Source: Candidatus Woesearchaeota archaeon
GTDB taxonomy: Archaea > Nanobdellota > Nanobdellia > Woesearchaeales > GW2011-AR9
Reading direction: 5' to 3'
NCBI GenBank assembly: GCA_018657845.1
Contig: JABHWJ010000033.1
Coordinates: 12,834-76,833, forward strand
DNA: 64,000 nt
Both the position numbers and the translations under genes were made by a program. Position 1 is the stretch's first letter; each line of letters opens with the position of its first letter. The notes beneath the pieces were generated by a model. That model saw only the letters and a list, made by a program, of their open reading frames with translations. It ran no database searches and was not told the origin of the DNA. Positions 7,859 through 61,402 of this stretch are shown piece after piece.

Positions 7859-8791
7859 TTACCCTAAATTATCTAGGATATCATGGGCATTAGAAGAACT
7901 CAAGTACTTTCCAATTTCTTTATTTTCTGCCCTTAACAAAAACGAGGCCTTCAAAGAACTCTTCTCAGCATTACTAACTCTAGCGAACCTATCTGCTAAC
8001 ATCAGCCCATATGGATAACCTAAAAACACCGCATCCCTACTATTCTCCACTAAATAAGGCAAAACCTCCAAATTACCTTCAAACCTAAATACATGTTTTG
8101 CTAATGGGTGTAATTTAACAAAAGAAGTTTTATTATCAACAAAATAACTCCAACATCCAGGAGGACAAAGTTTATTCAATAAAATCATTGGATTATTCCC
8201 AGAAACCGTAAACAGCGAACAGCTTTTAGCTAAAGCACAAACTCCAGCACTTAACTTTCCTAAATATTTTTCTTCATTCCGATAACTTTTCTCTAAAGTT
8301 CCATCAAGAACAATAAAATTTGCCTCTATTGAAGAACCTAAACTCAATTCTGCAAATCTTCTAGCTATATTAGCTACTTTAGAAACAGAAGCCCTTTCTA
8401 CCCCTTTCTTAATTGTTATATCATTGGAAGATATTAACAAATCCTTCTCATCAATTGCCCGATCTCCATAAATTTTACTCTGATAAAATAATTCTCCTTC
8501 AATCCACTTTGCTCGAGTAAACAAATAGAATTCCTTTTTATAAGAATTTAATTTCTCTTGACCTTTAAATACCTGGGCAAAGATTCTAATGAAACTTAAA
8601 CAAAAGTTTCCGGTAGAAATAACCTCTGTCTGCCCTCCATCAACAAAAGCAACAGTTTTCTCCCCTTCTTTATCGTTAATTCCCTTAAAACCTTTATTCA
8701 ATTCAATAGTTCTCCCATTAAAGATAATCTTATCTTCAGAAGAAAAGCTATTCAGAACTTCCTTTATTTCCTTAGAGATTTGTTCAATCAT
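7859..8791 (-). CDS. NurA-like (RNase-H-fold) nuclease candidate
   Basis: Two hydrophobic-DG motifs, 'VAFVDGGQTEV' (~aa 50) and 'FIVLDGTLEKS' (~aa 160), spaced as in NurA catalytic motifs I and III; 310 aa; first gene of a 4-gene minus-strand operon. Confidence 0.4.
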   Translation of the reverse strand: MIEQISKEIKEVLNSFSSEDKIIFNGRTIELNKGFKGINDKEGEKTVAFVDGGQTEVISTGNFCLSFIRIFAQVFKGQEKLNSYKKEFYLFTRAKWIEGELFYQSKIYGDRAIDEKDLLISSNDITIKKGVERASVSKVANIARRFAELSLGSSIEANFIVLDGTLEKSYRNEEKYLGKLSAGVCALAKSCSLFTVSGNNPMILLNKLCPPGCWSYFVDNKTSFVKLHPLAKHVFRFEGNLEVLPYLVENSRDAVFLGYPYGLMLADRFARVSNAEKSSLKASFLLRAENKEIGKYLSSSNAHDILDNLG

Positions 8792-8852
8792 ATTATCTTT
8801 AAAGAACTAAATTCATTAAAAACATTTATGTGTTTAAAGATATAAAATCAGA

Positions 8853-9293
8853 TCATCTTTTTCTTTTGGCGTTTTTTTTAATAGTAGAATGATAAAGTCT
8901 TCTTGCTTCGTGTAATTGAACCACTCCATCTCCATTAATATCTGCATCTCTAAAGACTTTCTGATAACTTTTAGGATTAATTTTAAATTGATTCTTGCTC
9001 GATAAAAAATAATCTCCTTTTTTTGTTTTCCTTACTTTAATCTTCCCCGAATTTATTCCTTCGATCGTTCTCAAAATTCGCTTAACACTACTTTGGTTAT
9101 ACTGGTATGGTTTATATTTAGAAGGTCTTTCATTATTTTCTTGAACAGAATCATTTAAATTTTCTTCCCTAGGAAGTAAAGTATTATAATAATCACTAAT
9201 TGTCTTTTCTAGTCTTGAACACCCACCCATATTCGTAACCAAGATTACTGGAACCATATAAATTCCCACTTTATTAACCAATTTGTCTAACAT
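8853..9293 (-). CDS. Secreted or lipoprotein-like protein with an EF-hand/dockerin-type Ca-binding loop
   Basis: N-terminal hydrophobic segment ending 'NMGGCS'; 'DADINGDGVVQLHE' matches DxDxDG Ca-binding loops; Lys-rich C-terminus. Confidence 0.45.
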   Translation of the reverse strand: MLDKLVNKVGIYMVPVILVTNMGGCSRLEKTISDYYNTLLPREENLNDSVQENNERPSKYKPYQYNQSSVKRILRTIEGINSGKIKVRKTKKGDYFLSSKNQFKINPKSYQKVFRDADINGDGVVQLHEARRLYHSTIKKNAKRKR

Positions 9294-9299
9294 TTGAAC

Positions 9300-10106
9300 T
9301 TACCTCTTCAAAGATTCAAGCGCATTATCCAAGGCTTTGTCAAGACTATTATCTTTCTTAGGAACTGGTTTTGATTTGTAATCCACAGAAGGTTTTTTAG
9401 TAGCTTCATGTTTTTCCATCTTACTGTACAGTCTTGGCATCAAACCACGAAAATGTTTTTCAGTAAACTCATCATTAGTTGCGTGAAAAACTAAACGATG
9501 TTTTTTCCCTTGGTATTCTCTAATCTCAACTTCTTCGGGAGATCCATTTCCGTTACTATCAATAAACTTATACTTAAACTTTTTATCTGGAGATAATATA
9601 GAAATAAAACCATCTTTATCTGTTAAATAACTTTTCCCTTCATCTGCTGGCACTATGTAAGTTCCTTTTTGAACCATATTTTCAACATTTTCCAGGTGTT
9701 CATTAATCAGCTTTTCTCTGAAAGTTACAAACATGTCTTTGTAAACAGCACAACTCTTACCACTACAAAGCCTTTTTCCATTAACTTCTACAACATCAGG
9801 AACACCATCAGCTTGTTGGAAGTAATCACTATCATCGGACATTTTAATAGTATTACTTTGATGACGAACCATTATTGAAGCAGAAGGGTAGCCTTCTGCT
9901 GTGGGGTTCCCCTTAGCAATATAAAAAACTCTTGCCCTCTCATTTTTTTTCATATCATTTTTTAAAGCATCTTCTAATGCACCTAATACTTCGTCTGGTG
10001 TTTCTGACGCAGATAATAATCCAGGGGCAGTAACTGCTAATGTTCCAGCAACAAACGCAGTTCCCAATTTTTCTAAAAATCCTCTTCGATTCATTTTGAT
10101 TTCCAT
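9300..10106 (-). CDS. Tat-signal secreted protein of unknown function
   Basis: Twin-arginine motif 'MNRRGFLEKLGTAFVAGTLAVTAPGLLSAS' at the N-terminus. Confidence 0.55.
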   Translation of the reverse strand: MEIKMNRRGFLEKLGTAFVAGTLAVTAPGLLSASETPDEVLGALEDALKNDMKKNERARVFYIAKGNPTAEGYPSASIMVRHQSNTIKMSDDSDYFQQADGVPDVVEVNGKRLCSGKSCAVYKDMFVTFREKLINEHLENVENMVQKGTYIVPADEGKSYLTDKDGFISILSPDKKFKYKFIDSNGNGSPEEVEIREYQGKKHRLVFHATNDEFTEKHFRGLMPRLYSKMEKHEATKKPSVDYKSKPVPKKDNSLDKALDNALESLKR

Positions 10107-27772: not shown

Positions 27773-28087
27773 TTAAGCATCAACCATTTCAATTTCAATA
27801 TTAAGATTATCAGGAATCGGAACTCTCATCACCAAACGTAAGGTTCTTTCATCAGCACCTAAATCAATTAGCCGTTTATGCACTCTCATTTCATACCGTT
27901 CCCAAGAAGCTCTACCTTCACCACAAGGACTTTTTCTGGTGGTAATTTTCAACTTCTTAGTTGGTAATGGAATCGGACCCTTAAGATCAACACCAGTCTT
28001 CTCCGCGATTTCTCTAATGCTATCACAGATCTGATTGATCTTAGCTATGTCCATGCTTGCCAACTTTATTCTTGCTCTCTGTGCCAT
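27773..28087 (-). CDS. rps10: Ribosomal protein S10
   Basis: '[41 protein letters not shown]' is the canonical S10 sequence; downstream of tuf. Confidence 0.9.
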
Positions 28088-28179: not shown

Positions 28180-29472
28180 TTAAAGCTCTTTTTTAACTAA
28201 ATCCATACACATCCCTGCAGCTACAGTAGTTCCAGAGTCACGAATTGCAAACCTAGACATCTGTGGGATTTCGCCGTTCTTCTCGATAACCAATGGTTGA
28301 ACTGGTATTAATCTAACAAGAGCAGCATCTCCATTTCTTAAGATGTCTTTGTTTTCGGTAACTTCTTCACCGGTAGCAGGATTAATCTTTTTCAAGATTT
28401 CTGCAAATCTACAAGCCACTTGTGCAGTGTGAATGTGGAATACAGGTGTATAACCAACAGTAACAACACTTGGGTGACTCATGATAACAATTTGTGCAGT
28501 AAATTCAGTAGCTACAGTTGGAGGATTGTCTGAAGGTCCTAATACGTCTCCTCTGGCAATATCTTTTTTACCAATTCCTCGTACGTTAAATCCTACGTTG
28601 TCTCCAGGTTCAGCTTTCTGAACTTGCTCGTGATGCATTTCAATAGTTTTACATTCACCGGAAATACCTTTACCTTCTCTTCCAGGTACAACTGTTACTT
28701 TATCTCCAATTTTCATTACACCGGTTTCGATTCTTCCAACAGGTACAACTCCGATACCAGTGATGTTATACACATCCTGAATTGGTAGTCTTAATGGTAA
28801 GTCGGTAGGTTTTTGTGGAACATCAAATTTGTCGATAGCTTGTAATAAGGTATCTCCATCCCACCAAGATAACTTCTCAGTTTTCTTAACTATGTTGTCT
28901 CCAGGTAGAGCTGCAAGAGGTAAGAATCTAATGTCGTCTACTTTCCATCCAGCCGGAGCTGCATGTTTTTTAACTTCTTCAACAACTTCTTTATATCTTG
29001 CTTCACTCCAGTCTACTCCAGAAATGTCCATTTTGTTAACAGCAACGATTAACTGTCCTACACCAAAAATCTTAGATAATTTCAAGTGCTCGATAGTTTG
29101 TGCATTTACACCATCGTTAGCAGCAACAACTAGAACTGCACAGTCTGCTTGAGAAGCGCCTGTAATCATGTTCTTAATGAAGTCTCTGTGTCCAGGAGCA
29201 TCGATAACTGTAAAATAATATTTGTCCGTATCGAATCTCTTGTGAGCTAGGTCAATTGTAACTCCTCTTTCCTGCTCTTCTTTTAAGTTATCCATAACGA
29301 AAGCGAATTCAAATCCACCTTTTCCAAGCTGTTCTGCCTTCTCTTTCAGTTTTCTCATTGCTTGCTCACCGATATTTCCAGAATCGAATAATAGTCTACC
29401 AACAGTGGTAGATTTACCGTGATCTACGTGACCGATAAACACTAAATTGATATGTTCTTTTTCTTTTGCCAT
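28180..29472 (-). CDS. tuf: Translation elongation factor 1-alpha (aEF-1alpha)
   Basis: '[27 protein letters not shown]', 'DAPGHRDF', 'NKMD'. The likely start is the internal Met at 29472 rather than the ORF start at 29529. Confidence 0.95.
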
Positions 29473-29581
29473 TGTTAAATCCTCCTCGTATTCGAGTATT
29501 ATTATTACTTTGTTGTGTTTTATGATCATTTATAAAGCTTTTGGAAATTTTGTCTTAAAATTTTTAAAAAACAGAAAAAAA

Positions 29582-29815
29582 TCAATATTTAATTTGATTA
29601 ATTGAGTTAGATCTAAAATATCTCATCAATTCAGAAACAGAAACTCTATCTTCTTCTTTAATAACCGGTTCAAGATAATCACCACCAACTGTCATCCCTT
29701 TTGCATCAGAACCTAGTTTCGGTGGAATGGGGTAATCACTAACTTTCTGTTCCAAACAACCAGGTGTTAAAACAATAGTTGTTGCTGCCCCCAATGCTAT
29801 TAAGTAACGAATCAT
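29582..29815 (-). CDS. Small lipoprotein-like protein
   Basis: 77 aa; signal ending 'LTPGC'. Confidence 0.35.
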   Translation of the reverse strand: MIRYLIALGAATTIVLTPGCLEQKVSDYPIPPKLGSDAKGMTVGGDYLEPVIKEEDRVSVSELMRYFRSNSINQIKY

Positions 29816-29885
29816 AATCTAAGAACAATTTTTCTACTTTTAAGTGTTGTGGAAAAACAAAATATAAGAAACTTAACAATTAATC

Positions 29886-31097
29886 TCACAATTCTCTTCT
29901 AAACATCTTACGTTTATACCTTCCCCCTGGTAACATCTCAGTTCTTGCTTCTACAAACTGTTGATAGTCTCTTGGTTTAGAAGATAGTTCTGATTGGGTA
30001 GATACTGAAGAATAAACTGGAGCACCAATCTCAACTGGTCTTTCTGCGCCCAAAGATGTTCCTAATGCAGAGATTAACCTGCCCAAGTCTCTTTCTCTTG
30101 GACTTACAGAAAGATTAAATAAAATGGCTTCACGGACAGATTCAGGAACACCTTTTCCAATCATTGTTTCTTCAGCCACATCAAAAATTATGGAATTCTC
30201 TCCTTCATTTGCAATTGTAGGTGCAACAATCATTCCTGTCGTTAAATAAAGATCAGTAGTAGTTTTTGAAAAAATATCACTTGGAATTGAAGAATCTTCA
30301 AAAAATGTTTCGGGAGCAAAATAGTCTAGAGTCCCAATCTTGGGCAGAGCATTTGCAAAACTAACTACAAAAGATCTCTCATTGGCTTCACGGAAAGAGA
30401 GCCTATACAAATCAGATCCAGTAACTCGTGAATTACCAAAATCCGTAACTGTGGTTCTTTGTCCATCAGACATAATATTCTTAGGAGTTATATCTCCATG
30501 AATAACGTTCTCTTTGTGAATTTTTTGAAGAGTTAATGCTGAATCATAAGATATTTTCAATGCAGATTCTAATGTTAATCCTTTCTCTACTAAATCATAA
30601 GTTGGTTCTCCTGGGGCTTCATCCATTTCTGTCGACATGAAAATATATTTATCAACGACAGTAAATTTCCTATCACGATATGAAACTACTCCTTCAACAC
30701 CCTGTAATGATCGTAAAATTACTCCTTCAATAATTCCTCCCACTACATGTAAATGGTCTGATTTTGAAAGTGTGAAATCAATCGACTGATCACCTTCTTG
30801 TAACCTATAACTCTTCCCACCAAGATGGTCTATCCTAACATTGTGGTGTACTCCCTCAAGTGGAACTAATGGTTTTTTACTAAATGCTAAAACTTTACGT
30901 ACGCCACCATAAGGACTTTTAGTTATTACACCAAACGAACCGGAATCACGACATTGTCCAAATACAGTTTCAAATGTTCTTTGATCTATAAGTTTAGTTG
31001 GATCAGGAACTGTATACCTTACTCCATGTGACTTAACTAAGGATCCTATTTCAGTTTGTTGTAAACCAGATCTTGTCATTTGATATTTCTTCCTCAT
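29886..31097 (-). CDS. Eukaryotic-like protein-kinase-fold protein (atypical ePK) with a novel ~170-aa N-terminal domain
   Basis: Catalytic loop 'VIHGDITPKNIM' (HxD...N) and 'VTDFGNS' (DFG motif) in the C-terminal half. Confidence 0.6.
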   Translation of the reverse strand: MRKKYQMTRSGLQQTEIGSLVKSHGVRYTVPDPTKLIDQRTFETVFGQCRDSGSFGVITKSPYGGVRKVLAFSKKPLVPLEGVHHNVRIDHLGGKSYRLQEGDQSIDFTLSKSDHLHVVGGIIEGVILRSLQGVEGVVSYRDRKFTVVDKYIFMSTEMDEAPGEPTYDLVEKGLTLESALKISYDSALTLQKIHKENVIHGDITPKNIMSDGQRTTVTDFGNSRVTGSDLYRLSFREANERSFVVSFANALPKIGTLDYFAPETFFEDSSIPSDIFSKTTTDLYLTTGMIVAPTIANEGENSIIFDVAEETMIGKGVPESVREAILFNLSVSPRERDLGRLISALGTSLGAERPVEIGAPVYSSVSTQSELSSKPRDYQQFVEARTEMLPGGRYKRKMFRREL

Positions 31098-31210
31098 TTA
31101 AAAAAGGGAATATACTTTGCCCCAGTTTCTTTTATAAAACTTCCTATTTACTGGAACATATATGTTACAGAAGTAGTTATTGAAATATAATAAAAAAAGA
31201 AATAAAAAAA

Positions 31211-33406
31211 CTAAGCACCCAATGATCCTTCACTCAAACCTTTTCTGCTAACAATTTGGTTCCGAACTTTATCCTGTAATTCTCCAGGTAATCGTTCAAA
31301 GCTCTGATCCATCAAAGAACTGTTTCCACGTCCACCCGTAGCACTTCGTAAGTCATTACTCCAACCAAACATTTCTGCAACTGGCATCTTTGCTTGAATA
31401 ACAGTTATGTCTCCTTCTTGGTTCATGTCCAATAGCTGTCCTCTTTTAGAACTAACCAATTTAGAAACTTCTCCCATGTGGACATTAGGTGTTTCTATCC
31501 TCAGGACTTGTAATGGTTCATACAAGATAGGTGCAGCCTGCATCATAGCTCCCTTGATACTTTCTCTAACAGCAGGATAAATCTGAGCTGGGCCTCTGTG
31601 AATAGTGTCTTCATGTAACTTCACATCTTTCAAACGCACAACTACATTTACACACGGCTCTTTAGCTAATGGGCCAGCTTTCATAACATCTTCAAAAGTA
31701 TCTAAGACCATTTCCATAACCTCATTAATATGAACAACCCCTCTTGTTTCCTCGAGTATGATATTTCCATTGATCATTCCTTTGACATTACCTGCACTTT
31801 TTGCATCCCAACCAATACTTCTAAAAGCCGCCACTACTGTTTCGTCCTTTTTCTTGTATCTTCCTTGGGAAATCTTATTCTCCTTAATTATCTCAGCAAT
31901 ATCTTCTGGCATTGGCTCAACAATCATGTAAAATTTATTGTGTTTATTTGGAGATTTTCCTTCTATTTCAGGACTTTCCTTAGTAATAGTTTCTCTATAT
32001 ACCACGATTGGTGAAGAGGTTTTAATTTCAACTCCTTTTTCACTTCTAATTCTGTTTTCAATGACTTCTAGGTGTAATTCACCCATACCATGCATTAAGT
32101 GTTCTCCTGTTTCTTCGTTAATCTCAACAACAATAGTTGGATCTTCTTTTTGTACTTGACGAAGAACTTCAATTAATTTAGGTAAATCTGCAGGTTTAGT
32201 AGCTTCAACTGCTTTGGTAACTACTGGATCAAAGATATGTGAAATCTTCTCAAAAGGTTCTGCTTTTCCTCCAGAAGTAACAGTTTCTCCTGGCATTCCT
32301 GATTTCAATCCCGCCACCCCAATAATATTTCCTGCAGGGACATTGTCAACAATTTCTCTTTTTGCCCCATTGTAAACATATACTTGTTGAACCCTTCCAG
32401 GAGAGTTAGCCATATTCAAGAAAACTTCTTCTCCCTTTTTCATTGTTCCACCAAAAAGTCGTCCAGCAGCAATTTCTCCCGCTTGTGGATCAACAACAAC
32501 TTTAGTGATTACAAAAAATAATCGTCCATTAGGATCACATTCGATCAAAGATTTTCCTTCGGCACTTTCTAAATCTCCATGCCATAATCTTGGAATTCTA
32601 TACTTTTGGGCTTGCACTGGGTCAGGGCTATGTTCAATAACCATGTCCAAAACTACTTCGTGAATTGGTGCCTTCTTGGCCAAAGCTTTAACTTTTTCTT
32701 TAATCTCTTCTTCAGTCCCACTATAGGCATCAATAATATCTTTGAAAGAAACTCCTTTCTTCTGCATGTAAGGTAATGAAATTCCCCAATTATGAAAAGC
32801 ACTTCCAAAAGCAACTGTTCCTTTTTCAATACTAACTTGCCATTTTTCTTTATACTCTTCTGGTGCAACACTTTTAATCATCCGATTTACTTCAGTAATA
32901 TATTTAACAAATCTCTGTTGCATCTGTTCTGGAGTTAACTTTAATTCCTTGATTAATCGGTCAGTTTTATTGATAAACAAAACTGGCCTAACCAGTTCTT
33001 TTAGAGCTTGTCTTAATACTGTTTCAGTCTGTGGCATTGCTCCTTCAGAAGCACAAATTAAAACGATTGCTCCATCTACTGCCCTCATTGCTCGAGTTAC
33101 GTCTCCACCAAAATCAACGTGACCTGGAGTGTCAATTAAATTAATTAAAAATTCTTTTTCATCTACATTATGGACCATAGAAACGGATGCAGAATCGATA
33201 GTAATTCCTCTTTCCTGTTCGTCTTCATGAAAATCTAAGTTTCTTGCCTTACCTGCAAGCTCTTCACTCATCATTCCAGCTCCTGCTAATAAATTATCAG
33301 AAAAAGTTGTTTTTCCGTGATCAATATGTGCACAAACCCCAATATTTCTAATCTGTTCGGGACTACCTGCAAGTCTCATTACCTTATCTGTCATTTTCTC
33401 TGCCAT
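31211..33406 (-). CDS. fusA: Translation elongation factor 2 (aEF-2)
   Basis: 'NIGVCAHIDHGKTT', 'DTPGHVDF', and the diphthamide-site region 'HEDTIHRGPAQIYPA'. Confidence 0.95.
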   Translation of the reverse strand: MAEKMTDKVMRLAGSPEQIRNIGVCAHIDHGKTTFSDNLLAGAGMMSEELAGKARNLDFHEDEQERGITIDSASVSMVHNVDEKEFLINLIDTPGHVDFGGDVTRAMRAVDGAIVLICASEGAMPQTETVLRQALKELVRPVLFINKTDRLIKELKLTPEQMQQRFVKYITEVNRMIKSVAPEEYKEKWQVSIEKGTVAFGSAFHNWGISLPYMQKKGVSFKDIIDAYSGTEEEIKEKVKALAKKAPIHEVVLDMVIEHSPDPVQAQKYRIPRLWHGDLESAEGKSLIECDPNGRLFFVITKVVVDPQAGEIAAGRLFGGTMKKGEEVFLNMANSPGRVQQVYVYNGAKREIVDNVPAGNIIGVAGLKSGMPGETVTSGGKAEPFEKISHIFDPVVTKAVEATKPADLPKLIEVLRQVQKEDPTIVVEINEETGEHLMHGMGELHLEVIENRIRSEKGVEIKTSSPIVVYRETITKESPEIEGKSPNKHNKFYMIVEPMPEDIAEIIKENKISQGRYKKKDETVVAAFRSIGWDAKSAGNVKGMINGNIILEETRGVVHINEVMEMVLDTFEDVMKAGPLAKEPCVNVVVRLKDVKLHEDTIHRGPAQIYPAVRESIKGAMMQAAPILYEPLQVLRIETPNVHMGEVSKLVSSKRGQLLDMNQEGDITVIQAKMPVAEMFGWSNDLRSATGGRGNSSLMDQSFERLPGELQDKVRNQIVSRKGLSEGSLGA

Positions 33407-33538: not shown

Positions 33539-34057
33539 TTACAACTCAGATAATCTCTTGCTAAGAAGACTTTTAATTTGTCTAGCAACACCCTGAGCTT
33601 GTTTTTCTACATTTTTTAACAAATAACCTTGAGCAATTGACGGAAACAATTCAGAAGCTGTATTATCTCCATTATACACTCCGATTAGTTCATATACTCC
33701 CATTTCAACACGACCAACAATCCCTCCTTCTTCGTCTCTCTCATAATGACTAATTGTAGAAACTTGATGTTCCCAAGCAATACGCTCACCATTTTGGCCT
33801 TTACTAGCGGCTTGTTTTGCATTTTCTTCTTCTGTTCTATTAATAACTCCTACAGATTCCACCAATGCATTACTAACAGCTTGCTCTAGATCTCCTTCAC
33901 CAACAACAGAAACTAAGATGCTTTTCCCATGAGTCTCATAAGGAACCACAATTTTATCTTGTACACTATATCTATGTTCTTCAAAAAGGGGTTGAACGTA
34001 TTGATCAAATCCTTCCAATGTAAGATCTTGTCCGATTAAAAAATTTCCAGATGCCAT
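33539..34057 (-). CDS. Hypothetical protein (172 aa)
   Basis: ORF only; no motif recognised. Confidence 0.45.
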   Translation of the reverse strand: MASGNFLIGQDLTLEGFDQYVQPLFEEHRYSVQDKIVVPYETHGKSILVSVVGEGDLEQAVSNALVESVGVINRTEEENAKQAASKGQNGERIAWEHQVSTISHYERDEEGGIVGRVEMGVYELIGVYNGDNTASELFPSIAQGYLLKNVEKQAQGVARQIKSLLSKRLSEL

Positions 34058-34104
34058 TTTATACTCCAGAAGTCAGTCACTTTTTAAACTTTTCTTAATA
34101 ATAA

Positions 34105-34383
34105 TTAAAACGGTTTATACTTAGAACTCCGATTACATTTGTAAAAACTAACATAATGTCTAAACAACGGATCTTTAGAATCGCCACATCTAATTTCCAC
34201 CCTCGAACCTAAAAAACTACAAAGTAATGGCTCCTTCTGATTACTCGGATAAAAGTAAGTGCAGTACATACAATTGCCCCCTCTTTTTTCCTTACCTCCG
34301 TTTTGGTAAGTCCCCCACTTAGTACATTTATCTACTTCTTCGTCCATTCGTTCTTCTAGACATTTAGACATCTTCTCCTCCAA
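34105..34383 (-). CDS. Small Cys-rich protein (92 aa, 10 Cys)
   Basis: ORF with multiple CxxC-like pairs. Confidence 0.35.
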   Translation of the reverse strand: MEEKMSKCLEERMDEEVDKCTKWGTYQNGGKEKRGGNCMYCTYFYPSNQKEPLLCSFLGSRVEIRCGDSKDPLFRHYVSFYKCNRSSKYKPF

Positions 34384-34518: not shown

Positions 34519-35160
34519 CTAACTTTCAATAACTTTAAAGATTCGGTCCAGAATCTCTTCCTTGTGTTTTCCAAAGTCTTCATTAACAGTTACTTCTTTC
34601 AACAAACCCTTCTCTTGATAATAACCAATCAAAGGAGCAGTTTGTTCTTCGTAAACTTTTAATCTTTCCTCAATAACTTCGGGAAGTTCATCAGATCTTT
34701 GTACTAATTTTCCACCACACTTGTCGCAAACACCTTCTTGTTTTGGTGGAATGTTTACAACATGAAAGATTGCTGCACAGTTACTACAAGTTCTTCTTCC
34801 AGTCAAACGTTGCATGATTACCTCTTTATCAGCTTTGAAATTGAGTACTAAATCAATTTCAGAAAATTCAGATAATGCCTCTGCTTGTGGAATAGTTCTT
34901 GGAAAACCATCCAAAATAAATCCGTTTGGTGTATCTTCTCTACCCAAACGTTCTTTCATCATTCCAATCGTAACTTCATCGGGGACTAATTTGCCAGAGT
35001 CAATAATCTCTTTAGCTTTTTTTCCTAGTTCGGTTTCGTTTTTAATATTCTCTCTGAACAAATCTCCAGTGGAAATACTCAAAACATTATATTTCTTAGT
35101 AATCTCTGCAGCATAAGTTCCTTTTCCTACGCCCGGACTTCCTAATGCAATTATTTTCAT
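34519..35160 (-). CDS. adk: Adenylate kinase with a zinc-binding lid
   Basis: P-loop 'LGSPGVGKGT'; lid 'CSNCAAIFH...CDKCGG'. Confidence 0.85.
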   Translation of the reverse strand: MKIIALGSPGVGKGTYAAEITKKYNVLSISTGDLFRENIKNETELGKKAKEIIDSGKLVPDEVTIGMMKERLGREDTPNGFILDGFPRTIPQAEALSEFSEIDLVLNFKADKEVIMQRLTGRRTCSNCAAIFHVVNIPPKQEGVCDKCGGKLVQRSDELPEVIEERLKVYEEQTAPLIGYYQEKGLLKEVTVNEDFGKHKEEILDRIFKVIES

Positions 35161-35171
35161 TTTTATTCACC

Positions 35172-35753
35172 TCAATATTTATGCATAACTTTCCATCTTT
35201 CCTTTTCCCAGGAAAAAATTTCTTCAGGTGTAAACCACAACCCAATTTCATTTTCAGCTTCCTCTTTATTTCCAGAAGCATGAACTAAATTTCTTAATGG
35301 TCTTCCTAACTTATCAGCCATACCATAGGATTCGGTACTGAAATCTCCTCGGATAGTTCCAATAGGTGCACCTTTTGATTCAGCAGGACCAACAATTTTC
35401 CTACCAACTTCAATTGCATGAAAACCTTCCCAAATCATTGCCACAACCGGGCCTTCAGTCAAGTATTTCATATTCCAATTTTTAACACGAGTAGCAATTT
35501 CTTCATTAGTTTCTTTTACCTCTGCCCCTCTAGAAGCGGCAGCTTTTCGGGTATTTTCTCCTAATTTTTCAATAAAAGCTGGAGTTAACACATAGTGTTT
35601 ATCTGCAATTGCTTCTGTCGGTAAAACCATTTTCATGGCAACTAACTTTAATCCCCTTTGTTCAAATCTTTTAAGAATCTCTCCAACCAATCCACGTTGT
35701 ACTCCATCGTGTTTAACTGCAATAAATGTTTGTTCAATTAATTCTTTTACCAT
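35172..35753 (-). CDS. ndk: Nucleoside-diphosphate kinase with a ~40-aa insertion
   Basis: 'EQTFIAVKHDGVQRGLVGEIL' and active-site 'NLVHASG...EIGLWF'; 193 aa versus the typical ~150. Confidence 0.8.
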   Translation of the reverse strand: MVKELIEQTFIAVKHDGVQRGLVGEILKRFEQRGLKLVAMKMVLPTEAIADKHYVLTPAFIEKLGENTRKAAASRGAEVKETNEEIATRVKNWNMKYLTEGPVVAMIWEGFHAIEVGRKIVGPAESKGAPIGTIRGDFSTESYGMADKLGRPLRNLVHASGNKEEAENEIGLWFTPEEIFSWEKERWKVMHKY

Positions 35754-35766
35754 TTTTTAAGACCTC

Positions 35767-36078
35767 TCATTTAAGTGATTCTTTTAACCATTCTTTAGCT
35801 TCTTCATTAATCTGCTCAACATCAAAAACTTCTATTACTGGCAAATCATAAGAATGAAGTGATTTTATTTTCTCAACAACTTTTTCAACAGAATCTTCAT
35901 TTGTCTTGATCCAAAGAGTGATCTCTTTTCCCCTCTCTATTTCTCCTTTCCAAACAAATCTACTGTTAACTGGCCACCAATTGATACAGGCCGCCAGCTT
36001 TTCTTCTAACAGTAATTTCATGATCTCTTCTGCTTTACTTTCGTCATCAATACAAGTAGATACTATCTTGAGATTCAT
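35767..36078 (-). CDS. cutA: CutA1 divalent-cation tolerance protein
   Basis: 'KLAACINWWPVNSRFVWKGEI' is the characteristic CutA core. Confidence 0.7.
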   Translation of the reverse strand: MNLKIVSTCIDDESKAEEIMKLLLEEKLAACINWWPVNSRFVWKGEIERGKEITLWIKTNEDSVEKVVEKIKSLHSYDLPVIEVFDVEQINEEAKEWLKESLK

Positions 36079-36260
36079 TTCTTTTTATGTTCATTTCTGA
36101 AAAGTTCTGTCCACCTTATTCTTAATGGTTTCCTCTTCAGTTTCAATGTATTCTTCTCACATTTACTAGAACAAAAGTTAAAGACTTTTCCATTAGTAAA
36201 TACAAAAATCTTACCTGTTCCTTTCTTGATTGATTCTCCACAAAAATTGCATCTTGGCAT
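36075..36260 (-). CDS. rpl24e: Ribosomal protein L24e
   Basis: 'MPRCNFCGESIKKGTGKIFV...FCSSKC' zinc-ribbon motif of L24e. Confidence 0.75.
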   Translation of the reverse strand: MPRCNFCGESIKKGTGKIFVFTNGKVFNFCSSKCEKNTLKLKRKPLRIRWTELFRNEHKKK

Positions 36261-36270
36261 ATTAGTTCAC

Positions 36271-36564
36271 CTATTTCTTGCCGCCTTTTCTTCGGCCGCC
36301 ACCGATTCTCTGTGCTTCAATTTCGGTTTCTGTAAGCATTAATGTGTCTCCGATTCTTACTGGGCCTTTGACATTTCTTCTAATTGTTTTATTCTTGTCT
36401 CTCCCATCTAAGATCTGACATAACACTTGAGTAATTTCTCCTCGACTTCCAGCTCTTGCAACGATTTCTTTTACTTCAGCAGGGACCGCACGAAAGAATT
36501 CAATCTTACCTTCTACTTTACTTTCGGACTTGTCATGCTTTTTGTCCATCATCTGTCGAGCCAT
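36271..36564 (-). CDS. rps28e: Ribosomal protein S28e
   Basis: '[49 protein letters not shown]' is the S28e OB-fold consensus. Confidence 0.8.
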
Positions 36565-36565
36565 T

Positions 36566-36916
36566 TTATTCCTCTTTCTTCTCAGAAGATTTTCCTAATC
36601 CTGCAATAAGAGTTTTAGCTTCTCCTTCTTTTACTACAGCTACTGCACTACATCCAACTCCTAAACCTGCAGCTGCTCCTAATTCATCTTTTTTGCTTAT
36701 TTCAAAACAAAGAATATTTTTATCCTTGCATAACAAAGGCAAGTGCATGATAACTTCTTTTGGAGAAACGTCTCCTGCGTAAAGAACTAACTTTGCATCT
36801 CCTTTCTCAATGGATTTGGTAGCTTCGTTAGATCCTTTTCTTATTTTGCCAGTCTCTCTAGCAATTTCAACAATTTCTAATAATTTTGCTTCATCAGCCA
36901 TTTTTATTAACCTCAA
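36566..36916 (-). CDS. rpl7ae: Ribosomal protein L7Ae (K-turn binding)
   Basis: '[30 protein letters not shown]' L7Ae/L30e signature; conserved S28e-L7Ae pair. Confidence 0.85.
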
Positions 36917-48544: not shown

Positions 48545-48632
48545 AGCCCCCGCCGAGATTTGAACTCGGGATCTCCGGTTATCCGTCTTGAGAGATACAA
48601 GACCGACGCATTAGCCACTATGCTACGGGGGC
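48545..48632 (-). tRNA. tRNA-Thr (anticodon TGT) with a 15-nt intron at the canonical 37/38 position
   Basis: Reverse complement: acceptor GCCCCCG/CGGGGGC, D-arm GCATAGTGGCTAATGC, anticodon stem TCGGT/ACCGG with loop CTTGTA[intron TCTCTCAAGACGGAT]A, T-arm CCGAGTTCAAATCTCGG. Confidence 0.7.
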
Positions 48633-61313: not shown

Positions 61314-61402
61314 TGCCCTCACGAGGACTCGAACCCCGGTTACAGGCTTTCTGCTTTTTCTTCAACCGCAAGCCTGTGTCCTATCCACTAGACGATAAGG
61401 GC
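61314..61402 (-). tRNA. tRNA-Arg (anticodon GCG) with a ~17-nt intron at position 37/38
   Basis: Reverse complement: acceptor GCCCTTA/TGAGGGC (with G-U), D-arm GTCTAGTGGATAGGAC, anticodon stem CAGGC/GCCTG with loop TTGCGG[intron]A, T-arm CGGGGTTCGAGTCCTCG, discriminator A. Confidence 0.65.

Follow-up and report, generated by a model that had tools for sequence, protein, structure and literature searches.

Results

The locus between EF-2 and EF-1α

In a 64,000-nucleotide (nt) stretch of contig JABHWJ010000033.1 from a Candidatus Woesearchaeota archaeon (hereafter the window, numbered from its first letter), the genes for the elongation factors aEF-2 and aEF-1α are separated by the gene of a Hanks-type (eukaryotic protein kinase, ePK) kinase and by a small open reading frame (ORF) of 77 amino acids (aa), termed orf77. 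The order on the minus strand is EF-2, kinase, orf77, EF-1α and the ribosomal protein S10. aEF-2 (731 aa, 31211-33406) was identified by the Pfam profiles GTP_EFTU, EFG_III, EFG_IV and EFG_C, the kinase (29886-31079) by Pkinase, and aEF-1α (28180-29472) by GTP_EFTU, D2, D3 and eEF1A_C; S10 (27773-28087) was assigned from the ORF list and Pfam, and orf77 (29582-29815) from the ORF list. An earlier, sequence-only reading of this DNA had placed a kinase and a 77-aa ORF on the same strand between the two elongation factor (EF) genes, which proved correct; relative to the contiguous outgroup state, it is an insertion. Among Hanks kinases it is a new member with a somewhat unusual structure and a position specific to its lineage, and no paper joining DPANN, Woesearchaeota and protein kinase was found in the set of papers searched.

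The kinase ORF extends to an ATG at 31097 (403 aa). Its start is probably M7 (31079; 397 aa), as in the homologues and in the NCBI record P0001, 'protein kinase [Candidatus Woesearchaeota archaeon]', a 397-aa protein encoded on a 77-kb contig and 100% identical to the kinase. The ORF of EF-1α reaches 29529, and the 430-aa protein probably starts at M20 (29472), because the homologues align from M20 and a GAGGAGG sequence lies 7 nt upstream. The GC content of the window is low (34%), and that of the kinase gene (36%, against 37.5-39% in the flanking EF genes) is unremarkable.

A chimeric metagenome assembly or a spurious ORF could give the appearance of such an insertion, and a chimera had been considered in the sequence-only reading in case the insertion was missing from all relatives. 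The insertion does recur in relatives, so this was not borne out. The order EF-2-kinase-(small ORF)-EF-1α-S10 was found in independent ENA, NCBI and JGI assemblies, in several lineages at 58-62% kinase identity; the kinase-EF arrangement is present in at least five lineages of one Woesearchaeota clade, and the junction from the kinase through the spacer to the 5' end of EF-1α is unbroken in all contigs compared. This recurrence in independent assemblies argues against a chimera, and the conserved catalytic motifs and confident fold of the protein argue against a spurious ORF. Conserved genes in this region can nevertheless seed chimeras or recombination. Starting at their left ends, L001 and L002 (9354-10649) are 100% identical through the kinase and up to ~280 bp inside EF-1α, after which identity falls to ~80% and other downstream genes follow; this switch of lineage inside EF-1α is likely to reflect a strain-chimeric assembly or homologous recombination. 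Taken together, we consider the chance that the arrangement is an artefact to be negligible.

Predicted fold and catalytic motifs of the kinase

The proposal that the protein is a eukaryotic-like kinase, made from its catalytic loop VIHGDITPKNIM and its VTDFGNS motif, was confirmed by Pfam, by residue conservation and by the predicted fold. The protein scored 38.1 bits with Pkinase (PF00069; gathering cut-off 31.7), a family carried by all of its orthologues, and 23.2 bits with PK_Tyr_Ser-Thr (cut-off 23.1). In the suggested check against other kinase families, Bud32 and APH scored below their cut-offs (14.3 bits for APH, cut-off 23.2), and RIO1 and HipA, like Alpha_kinase, gave no match at E≤0.1 in the Pfam scan of the window kinase. 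A non-kinase fold was excluded: a Foldseek search of the PDB gave at least 1,991 significant matches, all of them protein kinases, over ~290-330 aligned columns and with a target-normalised template modelling score of up to 0.70. The best full matches in a profile search of PDB sequences were Kit, PknB, PknA and IRAK4 at ~35 bits, with GSFG aligned on the glycine-rich loop of c-Kit.

The AlphaFold2 (AF2) model has a predicted local distance difference test score (pLDDT) of 84.6 and a predicted template modelling score of 0.82. It was built on a 65-sequence alignment that included distant members and generic kinases; a model from the 12 close sequences alone reached a pLDDT of 41 and was not used. 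The model forms a single continuous fold from residue ~20 to ~355, in the order β1-β3, four extra strands, αC, β4-β5 and an ordinary C-lobe, with residues 1-18 and 357-397 disordered. The sequence-only reading had described an unassigned N-terminal domain of ~170 aa, which according to AF2 and Foldseek is instead the kinase N-lobe, enlarged by an insertion that separates β3 from αC. This half of the protein seemed unassigned because the Pkinase match is confined to profile positions 51-206 and because of the insertion itself.

In the N-lobe, the glycine-rich loop DSGSFGVI (30924-30947, residues 51-58 in 403-aa numbering) aligns to GAGAFGKV of c-Kit, and the β3 lysine K68 (GVRKVL, 30888-30905) aligns with VAKV of distant family members. 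β1-β3 are predicted with a pLDDT above 90, and G53, F55, G56 and K68 are near-invariant in an alignment of 12 family sequences. The insertion of four β-strands from β3 to αC (30771-30851, residues ~83-109, or 77-103 in 397-aa numbering; pLDDT 93-97) is present in the close kinases and also in distant members of 22-26% identity. The αC glutamate E124 is conserved as well.

The catalytic loop VIHGDITPKNIM (30471-30506, residues 198-209) is of the HGD, non-RD type, and H200, G201, D202, P205 and N207 are invariant in the 12 sequences. Compared with the canonical HRD-L-K-x-x-N, the sequence HGDITPKN has Gly for Arg and T204 for the canonical Lys, and a basic residue, K206, stands at +4; this is a variant within the superfamily and does not exclude the protein from it. 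The two positions covary, as ten sequences have D-I-T-P-[K/R/Q]-N and two (P0010 and P0011) have D-[I/V]-K-P-[E/A]-N. The basic residue therefore seems to have shifted from +2 to +4, as in tyrosine kinases (HRDLAARN), while the P+1 loop remains of the Ser/Thr type. The activation segment from DFG to APE is long, at ~40 residues (30309-30449), and runs from VTDFGNS (30429-30449, residues 217-223) to IGTLDYFAPE (30309-30338). D219, F220, G221, A261, P262 and E263 are invariant and G255/T256 conserved, and two short helices are predicted in the segment (221-226 and 232-241, pLDDT ~78-83). A G-T..Y-x-APE sequence in the P+1 loop (ePK subdomain VIII) is characteristic of Ser/Thr kinases, and it disfavours a tyrosine kinase reading, to which the +4 basic residue and c-Kit as the top PDB sequence match might have led. 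D274 and the subdomain XI arginine R336 are conserved too, the latter without exception. The core residues G53/G56, K68, E124, D202, N207 and D219, invariant or near-invariant in the 12 close members, are also kept in the distant ones.

The protein ends in a disordered tail (29889-30011, residues ~363-403; pLDDT below 50 for 357-397 in 397-aa numbering). Within it, T386 of the motif A-x-T-E-x-L (TEML in the window kinase) is invariant across the 12 sequences, and it is a possible pT-x-x-L docking site (FHA epitope) or autophosphorylation site. Since the model shows a single fold and the sequence contains no hydrophobic stretch or transmembrane segment, the protein is predicted to be a soluble, single-domain Hanks-type Ser/Thr kinase that is catalytically competent as judged from its motifs.

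Size and divergence of the kinase family

A word-indexed search returned 11 other kinase clusters at 57-63% identity, and every named one was from Woesearchaeota. An exhaustive hidden Markov model (HMM) search of 1.84 billion cluster representatives gave 4 family-level matches, in effect one 50% cluster with fragments, below which scores were those of generic kinases (53,703 matches at E≤1e-3). When genome contigs were scanned with the family alignment, for which the pattern GD[IV][TK]PxNIM proved too generic, the matches listed were bacterial Hanks kinases, with no Woesearchaeota loci among them. Six distant members (P0045, P0097, P0129, P0150, P0060 and P0161) of similar length are 22-26% identical. 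The insertion from β3 to αC and the extended activation segment are present in them too, together with a canonical H[KRQ]D-x-K-P-x-N loop; there is thus a wider and very divergent family.

Across the close loci, EF-1α is 85-91%, EF-2 ~80% and ADK ~70% identical, against 52-67% for the kinase. One closer kinase pair, at 80%, is that of L007 and L003, genomes with differing left flanks. In the comparison of L001 with L007, identity is lowest for a Big_7 surface protein (64%) and for the kinase (66%). It reaches 74-81% for the flanking enzymes, with AsnRS and the CCA enzyme both at 78%, and 95-98% for EF-1α and S10. A description of the kinase as a hyper-divergent island in this comparison had to be softened, as Big_7 is lower and the flanking enzymes are themselves at 74-81%; the kinase is fast-evolving. 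On these sequence comparisons, it belongs to a small, fast-evolving subfamily found in one Woesearchaeota clade. In a neighbour-joining tree, the sequences of the LeuRS-linked context (type C, below) are basal in this clade, with weak support (14-56% bootstrap at the base).

Genomic context of close and distant relatives

Three kinds of context were found among the close relatives. In type A (the window, P0008 and P0009) the order is L7Ae-S28e-L24e-(CutA)-NDK-ADK-EF2-kinase-(small ORF)-EF1α-S10. P0010 and P0012 (locus L109) have the same frame with one or two extra genes between kinase and EF-1α (Ldh_2 with a 228-aa ORF; an HTH protein with Ldh_2). Type B (P0002 and P0004) reads AsnRS-171aa-kinase-EF1α-S10, without EF-2. 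In type C (P0011 and P0003) the kinase is convergent with an archaeal LeuRS gene, followed by PolX and PolB, and EF-1α is absent; upstream of the P0011 kinase (locus L005) lie EF2 and an opposite-strand DUF192 gene, and the P0003 contig begins only ~215 bp upstream of the kinase, so that its left flank is outside the data. Wherever the flanks of a close-clade kinase could be read, only 0-2 genes separate it from EF-2 and/or EF-1α, despite at least three rearrangements.

Among the distant members whose context was read (P0161, P0097 and P0150), no elongation factor stands beside the kinase. On the 162-kb contig of P0161 the kinase is convergent with a 124-aa FHA gene, which is followed by LeuRS and, further on, PolX; a DUF192 gene lies ~3 kb upstream, and the right side is as in type C. 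As P0161 and type C share the kinase-LeuRS-PolX neighbourhood, this neighbourhood predates the close clade, and the position at the EF-1α junction is derived. P0097 has a convergent 127-aa FHA gene at the 3' end of the kinase, and P0150 has unrelated neighbours. The two mini-FHA genes (L093, 11233-11607, and L091, 2011-2394, both on the minus strand) abut the 3' ends of the distant kinases. Their products are homologous to each other (E~1e-14), both begin with MGFFD, and they score 47.1 bits (beside P0161) and 25.1 bits (beside P0097) with the FHA profile.

Predicted transcription signals

Archaeal promoters carry a B recognition element and TATA box (BRE/TATA) ~25 nt upstream of the transcription start site, and oligo-T tracts act as archaeal terminators. 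The spacers of the locus measure 131 bp (EF-2/kinase), 70 bp (kinase/orf77), 109 bp (orf77/EF-1α) and 92 bp (EF-1α/S10). Directly after the EF-2 stop there are two terminator-like T7 runs (31192-31210), followed by a predicted kinase BRE/TATA element, AGGAAGTTTTATAAAAGAAAC (31125-31145), ~55 nt upstream of M7, where the coding strand reads AGGAAGTTTTATAAAAG. The orf77 stop is directly followed by terminator-like T7 and T6 runs (29566-29581); past these, the coding strand reads AAAAGCTTTATAAAT at the predicted BRE/TATA of EF-1α, CAAAAGCTTTATAAATGATCA (29523-29543), and then the GAGGAGG Shine-Dalgarno (SD) sequence (~29481-29487). After the EF-1α stop, a T8 run precedes the AAAGTTTATAAA box of S10 within the 92-bp spacer. 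Between 26 and 37.5 kb, all minus-strand runs of T≥7 lie in intergenic spacers.

These elements are conserved. The BRE/TATA element and GGAGG upstream of EF-1α were present in all lineages examined, and RAAG-N-TTTATAAA was found at a constant distance upstream of the kinase in 6/6 lineages. The kinase element is kept in L005, where the opposite-strand DUF192 gene precedes the kinase, and in L001 and L007, where the preceding gene is a different one; as the box is conserved although the gene before it differs or is on the opposite strand, transcription of the kinase must be able to begin there independently. Three copies of the 12-mer AAGNTTTATAAA are present in the 64 kb (0.37 expected), at the kinase and EF-1α sites and before an Lrp/AsnC regulator. 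This third copy led us to reject the 12-mer as the mark of a translation regulon.

A genuine operon, as judged from its sequence, is present further upstream. The genes L7Ae-S28e-L24e-CutA-NDK-ADK (34519-36916, minus strand) have spacers of 1-13 bp with SD-like sequences, and the group is conserved upstream of EF-2 across relatives. At the kinase locus, the genes are consecutive and on one strand, as in an operon; the spacers, however, are neither short nor free of signals, and the order is conserved in one clade only (2/60 loci of the survey below), not beyond close relatives. The sequence-only reading had taken the shared strand to imply co-transcription with the elongation factors. The T-runs after the EF-2 and orf77 stops and the conserved BRE/TATA elements before the kinase and EF-1α point the other way, and we infer that EF-2, kinase with orf77, EF-1α and S10 are separate predicted transcription units.

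The 5' leader of the kinase (31080-31125, minus strand) contains a hairpin-like sequence, CCC-TTTAAAAA-GGG, upstream of the start codon, which is also found in L001, L003, L007 and L009. The hairpin overlaps the sole purine-rich SD-like stretch, and its RNAalifold signal is weak (-4.7 kcal/mol, 6 bp, compensatory changes in 2/6 pairs).

The EF-2/EF-1α junction

EF-2, EF-1α and S10 had been expected to be contiguous as a rule. To survey the junction, 80 metagenome loci anchored on EF-1α (69-91% identity) were collected, 60 of which were informative. EF-2 and EF-1α are contiguous in 20/60, so that the expectation holds for about a third of the informative related loci. A gap of ~0.5 kb was seen in one locus, other genes spanning 0.7-5.6 kb lie between the two factors in 17/60, and in a further 20/60 EF-2 is missing within at least 3 kb upstream of EF-1α. 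The family kinase occupies the junction in the remaining two, L112 and L109.

Among the other fillers are HicA, HepT, PIN-like and HTH proteins, ORFs resembling lipoproteins, an unknown protein of 787 aa, a block of nine genes and, in L122, a different kinase. Close relatives without the family kinase were also found: L125, with EF-2 93% and EF-1α 92% identical to those of L003, has a 275-aa unknown ORF where the kinase would be, L106 has EF-2 and EF-1α ~300 bp apart, and L117 likewise has no kinase at the junction. Given the many unrelated fillers and the close relatives without a kinase, the junction is, on these sequence comparisons, a hotspot of insertion and rearrangement. The possibility that other EF-2/EF-1α gaps hold divergent kinases was rejected, as HMM matches were limited to L112 and L109 (family members), L122 (the unrelated transmembrane kinase) and L135 (ABC1).

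L122 belongs to another Woesearchaeota-like lineage. Its kinase (8128-9738, plus strand), directly upstream of EF-1α, is a canonical Hanks kinase (Pkinase 115 bits, HRDVKPAN) that is anchored in the membrane and unrelated to the family. In the same locus, a further kinase-like ORF is found downstream of S10. This could be chance, or it could hint that kinases are repeatedly associated with EF-1α.

The small ORF

The N-terminus of orf77, MIRYLIALGAATTIVLTPGC, combines a basic n-region with a hydrophobic core of 12 residues and a cysteine, Cys20, which is invariant in three homologues; the earlier label of a lipoprotein-like ORF is consistent with this signal-peptide-like N-terminus and invariant Cys. 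The conserved part comprises, besides the n-region and the core, LTPGC/LTQSC, with Cys20, followed by LE-x-x-V…PP-x-L-x-SDA, and the LTPGC/LTQSC sequence departs from the textbook lipobox, [LVI][ASTVI][GAS]C. No match was found in Pfam, NCBIfam or PADLOC. Homologues occur in only two other lineages, L003/L112 (75 aa) and L109 (80 aa), with the N-terminal ~45 aa conserved. In L109 the homologue adjoins EF-1α, two genes away from the kinase, and orf77 is absent from types B and C and from P0009.

As the 70-bp kinase/orf77 spacer has no consensus box, the two genes are likely to form one unit, and they are probably co-transcribed in the window. We regard orf77 as probably genuine and dispensable, a mini-protein that is secreted or lipid-anchored, and not an obligate partner of the kinase. 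A short likeness to the signal-peptide and Cys region of orf77 was noticed in the AT-rich kinase/EF-1α spacer of L009 (9144-9329); a decayed remnant of orf77 there was rejected, because the alignment was unconvincing.

Discussion

We are inclined to regard the kinase as a soluble Ser/Thr signalling kinase that evolves fast and is transcribed independently, its closeness to the elongation factor genes being synteny inherited after a rearrangement. Its own BRE/TATA promoter would drive it, probably together with orf77, in a unit that has oligo-T runs on both sides. Genome rearrangement in the ancestor of a subclade would have brought it to the position between EF-2 and EF-1α, and the adjacency would involve no operonic or regulatory coupling. 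Most likely, the protein would autophosphorylate or phosphorylate cytoplasmic targets on Thr or Ser, and phospho-epitopes such as the conserved T-E-x-L of the C-terminus would be read by FHA-type partners encoded elsewhere.

Several points weigh against this interpretation. The promoters and terminators are predicted, and there may be read-through from EF-2 or into EF-1α. A functional tie could, as an alternative, be the cause of the closeness to elongation factors that was kept through rearrangements. Neither the 64-kb window nor the ±8 kb around the close loci L001-L010 contained an FHA gene, and a profile search for FHA orthologues in 5.8 billion proteins returned only its two queries, so that an FHA partnership is a conjecture for the close clade. 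The poor basal resolution of the kinase tree also makes the order of rearrangements uncertain.

The sequence-only reading had suggested a regulatory link between the kinase and translation, in which the kinase would phosphorylate aEF-1α and/or aEF-2 and throttle translation, for example under starvation or on detachment from a host. The kinase does keep EF-2 and/or EF-1α adjacent in all nine close-clade contexts, with one factor retained when the other is lost; in type A and B loci it shares its strand with the EF genes, its promoter matches the consensus as well as the EF-1α promoter does, and an unrelated Hanks kinase lies directly upstream of EF-1α in L122. There is also precedent: in bacteria, the Hanks kinases PrkC, YabT, PknB and PrkA act on EF-Tu and EF-G, and phosphorylation of these factors reduces translation (PMC6213207); PKR-like phosphorylation of archaeal aIF2α has been reported (PMC5007285). 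However, neutral descent from one ancestral arrangement would be expected to leave the kinase beside one EF gene, and the separate predicted promoters and terminator-like signals, together with a third consensus promoter which drives an Lrp/AsnC regulator and shows that the motif is not specific to translation, speak against such coupling. The association is moreover shallow, with distant members beside LeuRS, PolX, FHA or unrelated genes, and the junction accepts many unrelated genes and is without a kinase in the close relatives L106, L117 and L125. We found no specific support for the link and consider it unlikely. The more elaborate proposal of a DPANN-specific kinase subfamily, characterised by a previously undescribed β-meander between β3 and αC and by the tyrosine-kinase-like shift of the basic residue, and recruited beside the EF genes in one Woesearchaeota clade to lower translation by phosphorylating aEF-1α/aEF-2, is in our view still harder to credit.

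The kinase and orf77 could instead be an accessory cassette for conflict or interaction (anti-virus, toxin-like or host-interaction) at a genomic island site. In other lineages this junction holds HicA, HepT and PIN modules. The kinase ranks with the fastest-evolving genes around it (66%, against 78% for AsnRS/CCA and 95-98% for EF-1α/S10), it occurs in some lineages as a pair with a variable secreted mini-protein, and its best NCBIfam and PADLOC matches are the defence kinases MADS6 and PD-T4-6 at ~42-45 bits. These matches reflect only the generic catalytic core, since MADS6 scored 44.9 bits against a cut-off of 460 and PADLOC matches were at most 42 bits; no full-length profile match to the anti-phage kinases MADS6, PD-T4-6 or Stk2 was obtained, no companion genes of known defence systems are present at the locus, and the neighbours have no PADLOC matches. 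Vertical retention across a clade whose EF-1α differs by 9-14%, the native GC content, the absence of orf77 from most lineages and its separability from the kinase likewise speak against a cassette of this kind, and we think it very unlikely. An independently transcribed signalling kinase with inherited synteny remains our preferred reading.

Among known systems, the Mycobacterium tuberculosis kinases PknB and PknA (PDB 1o6y, 5u94 and 6b2q) and similar Hanks kinases are among the top sequence and structure matches. They share with the window kinase the bilobal ePK fold, the G-loop, the β3 Lys, the αC Glu, the catalytic Asp/Asn, DFG, GT..Y.APE and the subdomain XI Arg. The window kinase differs in being ~17-18% identical, in having no transmembrane or PASTA segments, and in its HGD sequence, loop Thr, four-strand insertion and ~40-residue activation segment. 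The Sulfolobus kinase-FHA pairs, S. tokodaii ST1565 with FHA ST0829 and S. acidocaldarius ArnC/ArnD with ArnA (PMC5007285), in which an archaeal Hanks-type kinase acts with a reader of phosphothreonine that has an FHA domain, resemble the distant members P0161 and P0097 with their small convergent FHA genes; the difference is that no FHA gene lies near the window kinase or its close relatives. Those kinases regulate motility genes, and there are no such genes at this locus.

eEF2K is an alpha-kinase, whereas the window kinase has the ePK fold and no Alpha_kinase match, and the Thr56/Thr58 site of eEF2 is absent from the window aEF-2 (sequence ...GKARNLDFHEDEQERGITI). Bud32 (of KEOPS) and RIO resemble it in their HGD-type loop and in weak profile similarity (TIGR03724, 30.8 bits, cut-off 125). 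Bud32 and RIO have no full C-lobe with APE, αF-αI and the subdomain XI Arg; the window kinase has all of these, and it has no Kae1 neighbour. To our knowledge, none of PrkC/YabT of Bacillus subtilis, PknB of M. tuberculosis, eukaryotic eEF2K or the kinases of the PKR-like aIF2α phosphorylation is encoded inside a str/EF cluster.

If the kinase were to target the elongation factors, this would be the first case in archaea of elongation controlled by a dedicated kinase whose gene lies inside the EF cluster, and a counterpart, in a host-dependent archaeon, of the YabT/PrkC-EF-Tu or eEF2K-eEF2 control. In a reduced DPANN genome, each retained regulator is informative. The family makes up a small Hanks-kinase subfamily with a distinctive structure (β3-αC insertion, non-RD loop, long activation segment), and its wider relatives pair with a mini-FHA protein in uncultured archaea. 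The EF-2/EF-1α/S10 junction, considered conserved, is a frequent site of insertion and rearrangement in Woesearchaeota, with a predicted promoter for each gene, and it cautions that same-strand adjacency in archaeal genomes should not be equated with co-transcription.

Other features of the window

Upstream of EF-2, in the window alone, orf172 (172 aa) and the Cys-rich orf92 (92 aa) lie between ADK and EF-2 (33539-34383, minus strand). Neither has a family match, and ADK adjoins EF-2 directly in the relatives. An equivalence between the 172-aa ORF and the 171-aa ORF upstream of the kinase in type B was rejected, as the two have no similarity. Just downstream of the S10 region, a gene of the RNA ligase family (PF09414; 25598-27162, minus strand) overlaps an unannotated 244-aa ORF by 4 bp. 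Two tRNA genes of 88-89 nt (48545-48632 and 61314-61402, both on the minus strand) score 58 and 48 bits, respectively, with Rfam. ARAGORN misses the second and gives the first a 4-base anticodon, 'tgta'; both genes probably contain an intron.

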